A stretch of DNA of 63,499 nucleotides, the filler included, from an uncultured Methanosarcinales archaeon (GTDB taxonomy: Archaea; Nanobdellota; Nanobdellia; Woesearchaeales; CAZXZL01): the NCBI GenBank assembly GCA_964645415.1. It is 5 parts of 5 records of this genome, joined end to end, with 100 filler letters (N's around TTAATTAATTAA, not from the genome) between each part and the next. Parts side by side here need not be neighbours in the genome. Positions count along the whole stretch, not along the records: positions 1 to 14,260 come from CAZXZL010000025.1; 4 more parts are not named here. The stretch is one strand, 5' to 3'. The position numbers were made by a program. Positions 1-6,000 of this stretch are shown in pieces. Each line of letters starts with the position of its first letter. Position 1 is the stretch's first letter.

Positions 1-3000
1 ACACACTTCTAAACTTTAGTTTAGTAATCTTTGATTTTATATGATTGACCAGGATAGTACCATATTTCATATGACACGTTAGTTTCTATAATATTCTATT
101 TCTTTCTGTTTTTGTTTTTATAAAATCCTTTTTTTTTTAATTTGGATGATTTGATCTCAAATTTTATCAAATTTGATAAGGATGGTACTATACTCCTTAT
201 AGCACTGTAGTTCCTATAGTATTCTATTTATTTCTGTTTTTGTTTTTATAAGTTTCTTCTTTTTTTATAAGATGATTTTGATTTCTACACTCTTTAGGTT
301 TTTATTTTCTACTCTCTTTAGGACTTTTTCTTCATCAAACTTTGAATACTATGTTTCAAGAGTTAGAAAATCTATGATTTTCGTAATGTTTATTCGTTTT
401 ACCTAAAGAATATGTATTCGTTTATTTTCTAAAGAGATTTTAGGACAAAATCCTCAAAATAAAAAGTAAAAGTTTTCATAAAATGAGATAGAAAATAATA
501 ATGAACTATAGAAATTTATGTGCCATTCTTTAGAATGGTACTATCCTTGCCAACTTACTAAACTAAAGTTTAGAACTGTTAAATTAGAAATTTAAAAGTG
601 TGATAAAAGTTGAGGGCAAAATCCTCAAAATAAAAAGTAAAAGTTTTCATAAAATTACATAGAAAAGAATTTTATTTTGATTTCACTATCTTAAATTTTA
701 ATTTGATTTTTTATTTTTGACTTTATTAAAATGCTTTGTTTTTTTATTTCAATAAGTTTATATATACGCTTTTATTTCATGTTGTATTATAATAGCAAGG
801 TTTTTCACTCATTATTCATTATTATCATATATCACATTGTACGATTAATTCTGTACTCGCGAGTGAGAGTTCTTGCTGTGTTTTAATAGAGGTGTAAAAA
901 AATGGGAAAGATTAGTTTAATGGCAGCAAAATATATTATTCATGGTTCTATTTCTGTTGACGGAATGGTTGATAAACCAGATGTAATTGGTGCAATATTT
1001 GGTCAAACTGAAGGACTTTTAGGATCAGAATTAGAACTGAGAGAACTTCAAAAAAGTGGAAGAATAGGTAGAATTGAAGTAACTTTAAATAATAAAAGTG
1101 GAAAAACTGAAGGAGTTATAACTATCCCTTCAAGTTTAGATAAATCTGAAACTTGTATTGTTGGAGCAGCTCTTGAAGTTATTCAAAGAATTGGTCCTTG
1201 TGATTCTGAAATTGAAATAACTAAGATAGAAGATGTTAGAGTATCAAAAAGGAAGTATATTGTAAATAGAGCAAAAGGTCTTCTTAAAGATATGGTTGAT
1301 AAAGTATTTCCTGATTCACAAGAGATTTCTAATGAAGTTGCATCTTCTGTTAGAGTAATGGAACTTCAAACCTATGGTAGAGATAAATTACCATCAGGTC
1401 CAAATATTGGAGATGTTGAAGAAATTATTATAGTAGAAGGAAGAGCTGATGTTATTAATCTATTGAAAAATGGATTTAAAAATGTAATTTCAATGAATGG
1501 TTCAAATGTACCTAAAACAATTAAAAACTTGAGTAACAAAAAGATTACAACAGTATTTTTAGATGGTGATAGAGGAGGTTTTCTTGAAATGAAACAACTC
1601 TTAACTGTTGCTGATGTTGATTTTGTTGCAAGAGCTCCTGATGGAAAAGAAGTTGAAGAATTAACTAAAAAAGAGATTCATAAATGTCTTAGGTCAAAAA
1701 TTACTGCAGACCAAGCTAAATTAGATTATAATATTGGAAAAAAATCTAAGTCTAGTAGTAAAAAATCTAGAAAATCAAGTAAAAGAAGTAGATCTAAGAA
1801 AAGCTCAAGAAAAAGTAACAAAAAAAGCTCTAGATCAAAAAGTAAAAATTCTAAGTCATCAAAAAGTTCTAAAAGAAAATCTAAAAACAGTAAAGCAAAG
1901 AAAGTTTCAAAAGAAGAAAAAGAAACACTAAAAGATGTTTTAGAAGATCTTGTAGGAACTAGAGGTGCTTATTTACTTGATGACAATCTTGATATTTTAG
2001 GAAAAGTACCAACAAGAGAATTAATTAGTACTTTAAATGGTCTTGATGAAGATGGTGTTTATGCAGTTGTATTTGATGGTGACATAAGAGATAATATTGT
2101 CTCTGTTGCTGAAAATATGGGTTTAAAGTATGTTGTTGGTATGAAAAATAATGCAAAGAAATCATCTAATGTCGTTTTATTATCACAAAACGATCTTTAG
2201 TTTTTTTCTTTAAATTTATATATTATTTTTCTTTTTTCTTTTTATGACTCATCCTAAAAAACTTCATCAAGAAGTAATAATTTGGTATGTTGTTCCTTAT
2301 ATTAGGAAATCTATTGTTGACTTTCTCAAAGAAAAATCAATAAAACAAGTAGATATAGCTAATTTTTTAGATATTACTCCAAGTGCTGTTAGTCAATATT
2401 TACATTCTAAAAGAGGTAATTTGAGTGGAGATTTTGATGAGAAGGTAAAAAATAAGATTAAACAAATCTTTGGAGAAAAATTTAATCTAGAAGATTTTAA
2501 TTCTAGAAAAATAATCTGTGAGTTAATTTATTTTATTGAACAAACTTCTATTTGTTGTAAAATTCATAGAGAAGTTGAAGATTTTGATAAATGTTGTTGC
2601 GATTTTTGTAGCGCAAGAAATAAATCTTTAATTTAATATTTCAATCTTTTTTATCTATTTCTTTTTTGTTCTTTTTATTTTTTTTATGATAAAAATATGT
2701 GGTTATAATAATTGTTAAAATAGATAGATACTGACCCATTGTCATTGGACCTATAAACTCAAAGGTTTTAAGATATTCAATAAAAAATCTAGAAATTGAA
2801 TAAAATATAATTGTAAAATATAACTTATCTGAAAATAATTTATTTTTTAATTTATCATTTAATACTAATATAGCAAAAATAATAATATATACTAATGCTT
2901 CATAAAGTTGAGCTGGATGTCTACAACCAGAATACGTTTTAAAAACAACACACCATGGAACACTTGTTTCTATACCAACTATTTCATGATTAAAGAAATT

Positions 3001-6000
3001 TGCAATTCTTCCAAGTGCTAATATTAATGTTAAAGGTTTTATAATTACATTTAATAACTGAATCATTGAAAAATTATTTTTCTTAGAATAATATAAAACT
3101 ACTAATAAAAATCCAATTATTCCTCCATGTATAGATAATCCACCTTCCCAAACTCTAAAAATTCTTATTAAGTTTTGAAGGTAATAACTAGGATTGTAAA
3201 AAATAACATTTATCAGTCTAGCAAAAATAATCATATTAATAAATCCAAAGAATATCATTCCATCAATATCTTCTTCAGTTAGATTGAACTTATTTCTATT
3301 TTTATTTAATATATAATAAACAACTAAAGCTCCAATAATGAATACTAAACTATATATCCTTAAATCTATATTGAATCCAAAGATTTCAAAACTAAAAAGT
3401 ATTGGATCTAATGTATTTTTAATCATATTAAATACCTAATCTAATCTCATTATAATTTTTTTTAAATTTTTCTTAAATAAACAAAAGATTTTTAAGTAAA
3501 TCTTATCATTTAATTTAAAGTATATTAAAAAAAAATTCATATTTGTTTAAGAATTTATTTATAAATAAAATTTTGATGATCTTGTTTTATTAAAAATAAT
3601 AATTATATAAAAAATGCTAAAAAAAGAAAATATGGGAAAGTTATTTTGGATAATTTTACTTTTGATATTCATAATTTTATCAGTAACAATTTTAACTCCT
3701 TTTTTTATTTCAATTTTATCTGCAATATTAATTGCATTTTTCTTTAGGCCTTTAGATAACTTTTTTCAAAAAAAATTACCTGGTATTGCCTCTAGACTTT
3801 TAATATTATTTTTATTCATTCTTATTGTGTTTGGTCCTTTAACAATTTTTTCTTTAAAAATTGTTTCTGAAGGAATGGTTCTTGCAGGAAGAGCAACTGA
3901 ATTAGAAGATTTAGTTTCAGAATGCTTTAATGAAGAAGTTCAAGAAAATTTATTCTGTTCTTTTGTTAATTCAATTTCTCAATTTAGAGTTCAAGAATCA
4001 GGCTTTACTTTTGAAATCACTTCAAGATTAGTTAGTGGTCTTGAAGATATTTTATATACTTTTACTTCTTATATTTATAATATTTTATTCAATATCCCAA
4101 TTTTTATTTTTTATTTCTTTATTACTTTATTTATCTCTTATTTTTTACTTCGTGATGGAGATAAGATTTATGATGCTGTTAAAGATTCTATTCCACTAAA
4201 AAAGAGTCATTATTATGAATTTATTAGTAGTTTTAAATATATTTTAAAAGGAATCTTATATGGTAACTTTTTAACCGCTTTACTTCAAGGTTTAATTGCA
4301 TTTATTGTATTTTTAATTTTTGGATTTGATTCTGCTATTTTTTGGGGATTTGTTGTTGCAGTTATAGCTTTTATACCTATGGTTGGAGCTTTCTTTGGTT
4401 GGTTACCAATTATTCTTTACAATTTAATTACTGGATTAATTACTTCAAATTCAACTTCAATTATTATTTCAATTGTACTTTTAATTATTTCATTATTAAT
4501 TACTCTCTCTATTGACAATATAATAAGACCTGTATTAATTGGAGAGAAAGGAAATTTACATCCTTTATTAGTATTTTTAGGTGTTTTTGGTGGAATTACA
4601 TTTATTGGACCTATTGGTCTTTTTTATGGTCCTTTTATTTTACAAGTTACTGTAAATATGATTAATTCTATTATGATTGAATTAACAAATTAGATTAGGT
4701 GTTTTATATGGATATGAAAATAAAAAGAATAGAAGCAAGAACGGGAAATTTGATTTCAATGTTAAATCAAAAAGATGCTAAAAAATTAGGAATATTTTCT
4801 GGTGAAAGAGTTGAGATTGATTATAATGGTAAAACTATTGTGACTATTGCTGATGTTACAACTAATAATAAAATAATTCCTGAAGGTGAAATTGGAATTT
4901 TTGAAGATGTTTTTGATAAGTATGATATTGATGAAAATATTAATGTAGATGTTCACTTAGCAAGTTTACCTGAATCAATTCAATATGTTAGAGAAAAACT
5001 TGATGGAAAAAAATTAAATGAAGAAAAAATATTCTCTATTGTTGAATCTATTGTTAGTCATAAATTAACTGATGTTGAAACAACTTATTTTTTATCAGGT
5101 TCTTATATTAATGGAATTGATGATGAAGAATCAGCTTATTTAACTAAAGCAATGGCTGAGACTGGAGATGTAGTCACTTTTGATGGTGACGTTCTTGATT
5201 TACATTGTGTTGGTGGTGTTCCAGGTAATAGAACTACAATGTTAGTTGTTCCAATTATTGCTTCATTAGGATATAAAATACCTAAAGCTAGTTCTAGAGC
5301 AATAACAAGTCCTGCTGGAACAGCGGATACAATGGAATTATTTTGTAATGTTACTCTTAATGCAGAAAAGATAAAAGAAGCTGTTGAAGATATAAATGGT
5401 TGTCTTGTATGGGGTGGAGGGATGAATATTGCTCCTGCTGACGATTATATGATTGATTTAAGACATACAATGAGTTTAGATCCTACTGGGATTATGCTTG
5501 CAAGTATTTTAGCAAAGAAATATGCTATGGGTTCAAATAAAGTTTTATTAGATATTCCTATTGGTGAAACTGCTAAATTTAATAAAAAAGAAGCTAATAA
5601 ATTGAAGAAAAGATTTAAGGCTTTATCAGATCATCTAGGTATTGAAATGGAAATTATAATCACTGATGGAAGTCAACCTATTGGAAATGGAATTGGTGTT
5701 TCTCTTGAGTGTAGAGATGTTATCTGGTGTTTAACGGGTCATAAAAATGCGCCTAAAGATTTAATAGATAAATCTATTTATATGGCAAAGACAATGCTTG
5801 AGATGGTTGGTGAAGAAGATGCTGAAAAGAAAGTTTTAAATTCATTAAATTCCGGAAAAGCTTATGAAAAATTCATTGAGATGATTGATTTTCAAGGTAG
5901 AAATAAAAAAGATATTGAACAAATAAGGCTTGGGAATCATTCTTATAAAGTTAAATCAAAAAAATCTGGTAAACTAAGTTTTATTGACAATAAGTTTGTT

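Follow-up and report, generated by a model that had tools for sequence, protein, structure and literature searches.

Results

An intact Lgt between archaeal genes

The window, a stretch of 63,499 nucleotides (filler included) joined from five contigs of an uncultured Woesearchaeales genome (GCA_964645415.1; hereafter G000), carries near its start a single-copy gene for prolipoprotein diacylglyceryl transferase (lgt; 2641..3426, minus strand, 261 amino acids), recognised from family scores and predicted fold. On one side lie the archaeal-type DNA primase gene dnaG (902..2200, plus strand; NF003108 486.6 against a cut-off of 300), an archaeal marker, and a 130-amino acid ORF (2244..2636, plus strand) that is HTH-like by eye, has no Pfam match, and ends four bases from the lgt stop. 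On the other, divergent from lgt, is an AI-2E family transporter gene (3614..4693, plus strand; PF01594, 142.6 bits), followed by a second archaeal marker, the archaeal AMP/thymidine phosphorylase (4699..6186, plus strand; TIGR02645 537.3 against 434.6).

The Lgt protein matches Pfam LGT (PF01790) at 179.6 bits over model positions 7-237 of 240 (cut-off 24.9), and exceeds the TIGR00544 cut-off (143.4 against 118.9). Its sole PDB match by sequence is Escherichia coli Lgt (5AZB, E 4.1e-27; EC 2.5.1.145), and the motifs SIHGG, GRIANFFNHEIVG and RHPAQLYE are all present. The predicted model (pLDDT 94.5) retrieved 5AZB alone in Foldseek at E<=0.001, and shares its fold with 5AZC at Z 18.3 (rmsd 4.0, 244 residues aligned), the next score being 7.0 and no other chain of 48,161 reaching Z>=8. 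Although identity in the structure alignments is only 24-26%, and the host here is archaeal, there are equivalents of E. coli Tyr26, His103, Arg143, Asn146, Glu151, Gly154, Tyr235, Arg239 and Glu243, with Y25, H100, R140, E148 and R213 corresponding to Tyr26, His103, Arg143, Glu151 and Arg239, and G139-G151 to G142-G154. The agreement of family scores, 5AZB match, motifs and predicted fold confirms this ORF as an intact Lgt, in which the catalytic residues are kept, and bears out the genome-wide survey's note that it is a true homologue with its catalytic signatures.

A divergent LspA

The signal peptidase gene, lspA, lies outside the window on contig C13 (22172-22594, plus strand), where it adjoins tRNA-Met at the end of the contig. 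Its product matches Pfam Peptidase_A8 (PF01252) at 46.1 bits (cut-off 25; model 9-142 of 142), the third-lowest of 147 matches, and scores 36.7 bits against the lspA equivalog TIGR00077, below the cut-off of 73.95, making it a member of family A8 rather than a scored equivalog. All three bacterial LspA structures (6RYO, 9EMZ and 5DIR) were matched by a profile of 28 archaeal proteins at E values from 9e-38 to 9e-36, and the motifs stayed in register, yet the G000 copy is about 14 residues shorter than either these enzymes or its 28 relatives, the gap falling after the first helix, in the outer domain. D109 (VIDY) and D122 (NLSD) align to Pseudomonas aeruginosa D124 and D143, which we take to be the catalytic dyad. 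The Asp of GNxLDR, which the earlier note had counted among the catalytic pair, instead aligns to P. aeruginosa D115, and hence is not a dyad member, while the note's family assignment and its claim that both aspartates are present stand. The source on LspA speaks of "two strictly conserved aspartates", naming no dyad positions.

The low scores and missing residues could be read as decay, with Lgt still working while signal peptides are retained or cut by another protease. We consider this improbable, as the frame is open with no stops, all 11 invariant columns of a 28-row archaeal alignment are kept, including both dyad aspartates, and the gene still occupies a conserved slot. The G000 LspA is divergent, yet retains both likely catalytic aspartates.

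Contamination or chimeric assembly, as an origin for both bacterial-type genes, would be compatible with a bin of 79 contigs and with the contig end next to lspA. However, one public contig spans window positions 1645-6300 (the end of dnaG, lgt and the phosphorylase) with no mismatch, and a second covers 800-3231, although the present DNA could itself derive from both runs. The named nearest relatives are archaeal, and Lgt occurs in 151 of 161 genomes of the phylum. Order-wide presence and synteny refute this explanation, the chance of which we regard as negligible, in line with the earlier argument from archaeal contigs (dnaG and the phosphorylase; tRNA-Met) and order-wide occurrence.

Lipobox proteins

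An in-house rule, rather than SignalP, gave 15 lipobox matches among 958 ORFs, 14 of them typical (contigs C1, C7, C15, C18, C21, C40, C41, C57 and C61, all off the window), close to the 16 and 15 counted previously. Among signal-bearing ORFs 14/100 had a lipobox, compared with a mean of 0.7 and a maximum of 4 in 1000 shuffles. Lipobox substrates thus exceed chance in G000; Pfam names just 2/13 of the lipobox proteins above cut-off.

Lgt/LspA and AliA have complementary distributions

LspA was found in 147/161 genomes of the phylum, and is single-copy in every one of these 147 carriers. Within the same order the counts were 123/125 for Lgt and 119/125 for LspA, with at least one of the two in each of the 125 genomes; both are true homologues across the order. 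The note's wider phrase, "most Nanobdellota", is loosely worded given published Pacearchaeota figures of 7.8% and 4.4%.

In Haloferax volcanii, lipobox proteins are also acted upon by AliA/AliB (arCOG02177/02178, DUF63; PMC12462473), a different family from Lgt/LspA that is tied to thioether-linked archaeol anchors. Scored as DUF63 (arCOG02177), AliA was present in 3/161 genomes, all among the eight with neither Lgt nor LspA, and in 0/153 genomes having either enzyme. Five further AliA-bearing genomes had neither Lgt nor LspA, and five sampled genomes lacked all three. A 29-sequence profile detected no DUF63 in G000 (best E 0.069), whereas its most divergent member was recovered at E 5.6e-16 in a leave-one-out control. 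The distribution of Lgt/LspA and AliA is therefore complementary. The Hong tables list AliA/AliB as 0/0 in all seven Woesearchaeota rows, at least six of which have 12-60 predicted lipoproteins.

A shared slot

A small ORF with no Pfam match lies upstream of lspA (C13:21811-22206, plus strand, off the window). This slot gene directly precedes lspA in 109/128 genomes, nine of the 109 being outside the order, and the same gene precedes aliA in 5/7 AliA loci in Nanobdellota, one of the seven being weak (E 5e-4); the slot of the G161 aliA, at a contig end, was not scorable. Hence lspA in these archaea, unlike its bacterial counterparts, occupies the position that aliA has in AliA-bearing kin, pointing to an in-place replacement of aliA by lspA. 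The order and some sister lineages would share an early ancestor that gained lgt and lspA, with lspA landing in the aliA slot and aliA being lost. The slot gene product is modelled as mostly disordered with one long helix (pLDDT 65.7), and belongs to unnamed archaeal clusters only in the Atlas. As a peptidase took the slot of AliA, it is conceivable, if a long shot, that AliA or the slot gene shares in signal-peptide removal, a step without a known archaeal enzyme.

The free Lgt tree did not group the archaeal rows, with which three bacterial groups interleave; eight divergent archaeal copies fall in a group apart, and 13/75 archaeal rows have a changed His103. These features would fit repeated, recent or cassette-borne transfers serving a few special substrates, rather than an inherited housekeeping pathway. 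However, a single archaeal clade was not rejected (p-AU 0.48), LspA is single-copy in all its carriers, one upstream neighbour of lspA is shared inside and outside the order, and by GC3 lgt and lspA rank at the 39th and 80th percentiles of 776 genes. Such transfers are consequently a very improbable account. The tree, with 21 named bacterial rows and no Patescibacteria, Cyanobacteria or typical Actinomycetia, did not resolve the donor lineage; the single bacterial clade of a first tree dissolved on adding named Proteobacteria and Bacillota.

Lipid genes and the Lgt donor

Three lipid genes of G000 were found by profile search: a candidate phosphatidylglycerophosphate phosphatase of the HAD type (PF09419; 32385..32891 in the contig C28 part of the window, minus strand), and, off the window on contig C5, pgsA (13340-13882, minus strand) and carS (16133-16678, minus strand). 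The phosphatase and PgsA-type transferase had been noted previously, and the transferase scores as bacterial PgsA. PlsC, PlsY, GpsA, DgkA and PgpA were not found in G000, nor was any lipid backbone synthesis. A PcrB match proved to be triosephosphate isomerase, a UbiA-family protein fell under all DGGGPS cut-offs, and eight Fe-ADH_2 matches (43-51 bits) look too weak to represent G1P dehydrogenase. No full GGGPS was found in the 161 genomes, and because a route to an ether backbone was detected in none of them, the ether-lipid membrane assumed earlier is not established. PlsC-like genes occur in 49/161 genomes and GpsA in 34/161, and one genome (G092) combines AliA with bacterial-type FakA/FakB, two PlsY and GpsA, but has no Lgt; therefore a genome with bacterial lipid genes need not carry Lgt.

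From its gene content, the G000 cell appears unable to make a lipid backbone, so its donor phosphatidylglycerol would either come ready-made from a host, or be completed by CarS, PgsA and the phosphatase from a precursor that the host supplied. We put at about even the chance that this donor is host-derived, ester-linked bacterial phosphatidylglycerol. The same pathway could instead draw archaetidylglycerol, an ether lipid, from an archaeal host, with Lgt adapted to isoprenoid chains. CarS exceeds the cut-off for archaeal CDP-archaeol synthase (152.7 against 148) and occurs in 66/161 genomes, acyltransferase and GpsA have no match in G000, Lgt cleaves the C3-O-P bond rather than the chain linkage, and Nanoarchaeum equitans obtains its lipids from an archaeal host. 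Yet AliA, with its thioether-archaeol anchors, was found in no genome with Lgt, and of 75 archaeal Lgt, all conserve Arg143 and 70 conserve Tyr26, residues that in E. coli bond to ester oxygens. The PlsC-like and GpsA genes of relatives lacking a full GGGPS, and the bacterial score of the G000 transferase, likewise count against an ether donor, which we judge unlikely, if still a serious contender.

Discussion

These data probably describe a bacterial-type housekeeping lipoprotein pathway of the order, which replaces the archaeal AliA pathway. Lipobox precursors would be exported, and Lgt, on the basis of its conserved residues and fold, would take the diradyl-glyceryl moiety from phosphatidylglycerol and attach it to the lipobox cysteine via the equivalents of His103, Arg143 and Arg239, after which LspA would remove the signal peptide. 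Unlike E. coli, G000 has no detected Lnt, and therefore the mature lipoprotein should carry two chains.

The mere presence of Lgt and LspA in Woesearchaeota is already known from databases and supplements: NCBI records carry the gene names, as the survey's note anticipated, and two supplements tabulate the genes. Table S3 of Castelle 2021 (PMC8204110; module 15, fam06994/fam04729) covers 196 Woesearchaeota and gives frequencies of 83.2% for LGT and 82.7% for Peptidase_A8, but as table rows only, with no connection made to AliA or substrates, and a main text without "lipoprotein", "Lgt" or "signal peptidase". Our literature search, conducted partly by title and the start of abstracts, with subscription papers and bioRxiv supplements outside its scope, found no main text reporting these enzymes in Woesearchaeota. 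What is new is the rarity of AliA, confined to genomes with neither Lgt nor LspA, the slot common to lspA and aliA, and the finding of no full GGGPS, with CarS, PgsA and the phosphatase kept in G000. The occurrence of both enzymes corrects the claim, repeated in 2018 and 2025, of zero archaeal Lgt or Lsp homologues, a denial quoted in the note and located in both PMC12462473 and PMC6098224, and partly fills a gap flagged in the AliA paper, that of lipoprotein-rich genomes without AliA/AliB.

Lgt and LspA in place of AliA hint that the order may live with bacterial-type membrane lipids, and the lipid preference of Lgt offers a culture-free way into the lipids and hosts of uncultured Woesearchaeales. 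More tentatively, at somewhat less than even chances, Woesearchaeales membranes and anchors might consist mainly of ester phospholipid from bacterial hosts, the move to such hosts having driven an early, order-wide exchange in which lgt and lspA supplanted aliA and lspA entered the aliA slot. If true, the presence of Lgt or of AliA in a DPANN genome would serve as a marker for the domain of its host.

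An Lgt of archaeal provenance

The lgt gene (2641-3426, minus strand) is an ORF of 261 aa in a window joined from contigs C25, C26, C28, C29 and C39 of a 961 kb genome in 79 contigs (completeness 100, contamination 1.46). Its product scores 179.6 bits against Pfam LGT and 143.4 bits against TIGR00544, above the cut-off of 118.9, and a sequence search of the PDB matched E. coli Lgt alone (E 4.1e-27). Using the predicted model (pLDDT 94.5; input alignment of 75 rows), 5AZB was the only Foldseek match at E<=0.001, and a comparison with 48,161 chains reached Z>=8 for 5AZC only (Z 18.3, rmsd 4.0, 244 aligned). 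The essential residues, taken from the sections of PMC4728403 and PMC8689077 drawn on here, have their equivalents in Y25, H100, R140, N143, E148, G151, Y209, R213 and E217. Across 75 Lgt sequences, a non-random set of 30 top scorers and 45 hand-picked from the compared genomes, Arg143 and Arg239 are conserved in all, Gly154 in 74, Glu151 in 67 and His103 in 62; His103 is altered in the other 13 rows. Hence this is a true Lgt homologue with its catalytic signature, as the genome-wide survey's note had claimed.

Contamination, which that note judged unlikely, is ruled out as the source of lgt by several lines of evidence. The neighbouring genes are an archaeal DnaG and AMP phosphorylase; public contigs cover 1645-6300 (zero differences) and 800-3231, although either run is possibly the source of this DNA; GC3 lies at the 39th percentile among 776 genes; and among the best 69 homologues, the nine for which an organism is named all belong to Woesearchaeota, Nanoarchaeota or Nanoarchaeia, the earliest named bacterium standing at rank 70. 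The adjacent DnaG (902-2200) has a long low-complexity linker, rich in Lys, Ser and Arg, ahead of its C-terminal domain. Elsewhere, lgt is adjoined in 16 of 31 loci (L005 and 15 others) by an unnamed membrane protein some 250-300 aa long, which does not lie next to lgt in this genome; a Pfam search of two members gave no match.

In a 127-row Lgt tree, the window protein groups with a named Woesearchaeota protein, but on a weak backbone the archaeal rows are intermixed with Bacillota, Proteobacteria and a Bacteroidota/Ignavibacteria-type group. With 38 rows taken out (20 of them unnamed, 8 divergent copies and 10 near-duplicates) and one Omnitrophota-labelled row placed in the archaeal group once the tree had been inspected, a single archaeal clade was not rejected: its log-likelihood was 3.3 lower, with p-AU 0.48. 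On this evidence archaeal Lgt may or may not have a single origin. Eight divergent archaeal copies (L125, L128, L130, L131, L132, L146, L148 and L149) form a separate group beside Bacillota rows, such a copy being the top-scoring Lgt match in some genomes.

LspA and lipobox substrates

The genome's one LspA match, on contig C13 (46.1 bits), has a frame free of stops, falls under the TIGR00077 cut-off, scores third-lowest among 147 LspA matches and is ~14 residues short following the first helix; the protein is divergent in sequence. An alignment of 28 of the 31 loci (two were missed by the search pattern, and one near-duplicate was removed) has 11 invariant columns, all retained here, and its profile matches 6RYO, 9EMZ and 5DIR. 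D109 and D122 align with P. aeruginosa D124 and D143, which we take to be the catalytic dyad. The note's claim of retained catalytic Asp residues therefore stands for this pair, but the Asp of GNxLDR that it named is a third conserved Asp, not aligned to the dyad.

The lipobox rule matches 15 of 958 ORFs, 14 of them typical. Among 100 ORFs with a single N-terminal hydrophobic segment 14 carry a lipobox, against a mean of 0.7 and a maximum of 4 in 1000 shuffled runs, and at the lipobox position Cys gave 16.5 matches per percent frequency where 14 other residues gave 0-4.6. The candidate lipobox substrates exceed chance. Pfam assigns two of the 13 scanned, a cupredoxin and an erythromycin-esterase-family protein. 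A search of the genome for Lnt found none.

Distribution, and a slot shared with AliA

Of 161 Nanobdellota genomes, each at least 94% complete, 151 carry Lgt and 147 carry LspA (146 of them above cut-off), in a sample that is skewed because 125 come from Woesearchaeales, and whose related members are not independent. Within the order, Lgt is found in 123/125, LspA in 119/125 and at least one in 125/125, bearing out an order-wide pathway; the 36 genomes outside it have both enzymes (28) or neither (8).

DUF63, the archaeal enzyme AliA, occurs in three of the 161 genomes, all among those eight, and in 0/153 with Lgt or LspA. Five additional AliA-bearing genomes (one 83% complete, four with no completeness stated) have neither enzyme, and a DUF63 profile of 29 sequences found no match in the window's genome. 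Five near-complete genomes (G018, G031, G085, G106 and G142) have no match for Lgt, LspA or DUF63, and may either lack lipoproteins or use a third pathway.

A small uncharacterised gene, the slot gene, lies directly 5' of lspA in 21/31 loci, and its profile matches 131/161 genomes. Where both genes occur (128 genomes), it is directly upstream on the same strand in 109, within 2 kb in 4 and elsewhere in 15; 21 of the slot genes counted had also served to make the profile. In Nanobdellota-type loci a member of the same family immediately precedes aliA as well. Among seven distinct loci having upstream DNA (two repeating other sequence were counted once), it is adjacent in five (E 6e-16, 4e-10, 2e-8, 2e-8 and a weak 5e-4, the last to be discounted given the family's low complexity), separated by two small ORFs in one (E 3e-16) and not nearby in one; in the 19 other archaeal loci none was found close to aliA. 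Genome-wide searches gave a single match in G089, the gene beside aliA, and none in G092. Since the cited part of PMC12462473 proposes that archaea ancestrally had AliA, and the same gene lies upstream of both lspA and aliA, the most economical interpretation is a takeover of aliA's place by lspA.

Lipid supply and the Lgt donor

No full-length GGGPS was found in the 161 genomes, which gave 13 weak partial matches; the same lack is reported in the cited part of PMC8421398. The partial match in the window's genome was identified as triosephosphate isomerase. Searches of this genome for polyprenyl synthase, PlsC, PlsY, GpsA, PgpA and DgkA gave no match. It does encode an archaeal-type CarS (152.7, cut-off 148), a bacterial-scoring PgsA (133.5, cut-off 109.1) 2.3 kb from carS, and a PF09419 phosphatase, which, judging by family, would together take a phosphatidic-type acid to phosphatidylglycerol, the donor of Lgt, in three steps. 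Near carS (2.5 kb) is a weak, below-cut-off Porin_4 match (L094:11217-12899, contig C5; E 1.2e-4), and on contig C4 a 513 aa protein (L095:4526-6067), under all named cut-offs, joins an unannotated N-terminal half to a C-terminal UbiA domain.

In the wider set, CarS occurs in 66/161 genomes, strong CDP-alcohol transferases in 36, PlsC-like genes in 49, GpsA in 34 and PlsY in 3, and in G081 carS immediately precedes lgt. G117 has a PlsC-PlsC-GpsA run, part of a longer one (L096:1095-8444, contig C5) in which thiolase, SDR, acyl-CoA dehydrogenase and EtfB/A join the two PlsC-like acyltransferases and GpsA, possibly for bacterial-type phosphatidic acid synthesis; the tandem recurs in G035 and G074. 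In G002 (L102:7824-10588, contig C1), 2.5 kb from lgt, a phosphopantetheinyl transferase accompanies an Aas-like fusion of AMP-binding, carrier and acyltransferase domains. G092 carries, within 11 kb (L098:5394-16114, contig C19), FakA, FakB/DegV, two PlsY, GpsA, CarS and a CDP-alcohol transferase, a predicted fatty-acid salvage route in an archaeon. That G092 combines FakA/FakB, two PlsY and GpsA with AliA, and has no Lgt, speaks against a simple link between bacterial lipid genes and Lgt, as does the archaeal type of CarS.

A patatin-like phospholipase in the window (14473-15279, minus strand; PF01734, 88.3 bits) fits ester-lipid handling, since this family cuts acyl esters. The chances that an ester-linked lipid is the Lgt donor are about even. 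Woesearchaeia are proposed, in the cited part of PMC11868695, to modify lipids from bacterial hosts; the fuller reading, of an ester membrane with a bacterial host, is somewhat doubtful.

Discussion

The order-wide bacterial-type lipoprotein pathway is real, and probably functions as its bacterial counterpart does. The enzymes are known, and their presence in Woesearchaeota has been tabulated, uninterpreted within the searchable literature: NCBI records already name the Lgt proteins; Table S3 of Castelle 2021 (PMC8204110), which covers 196 Woesearchaeota, has LGT in 83.2% of them and Peptidase_A8 in 82.7%, and the text sections cited do not take this up; and the part of Huang 2021 Suppl. Data 4 used here lists lgt. 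PMC13631571 makes no mention of DPANN, and 'lipoprotein' is absent from the main text of a 2026 Nanobdellota preprint, whose supplements may bear on the question. What this analysis adds is the exclusion of AliA from Lgt/LspA genomes, and the shared slot.

The order-wide Lgt and LspA contradict specialist text, as archaeal homologues are denied in PMC6098224 and described as not known in the cited sections of Hong et al. 2025 (PMC12462473). Those sections, in which many rows of the arCOG02177 alignment carry the label DUF63, also flag lipoprotein-rich genomes without AliA and AliB. In the tables cited, 24/25 Pacearchaeota and 7/7 Woesearchaeota rows have 0/0 entries for AliA/AliB, and six Woesearchaeota rows have 12-60 predicted lipoproteins, or 29-51% of secreted proteins.
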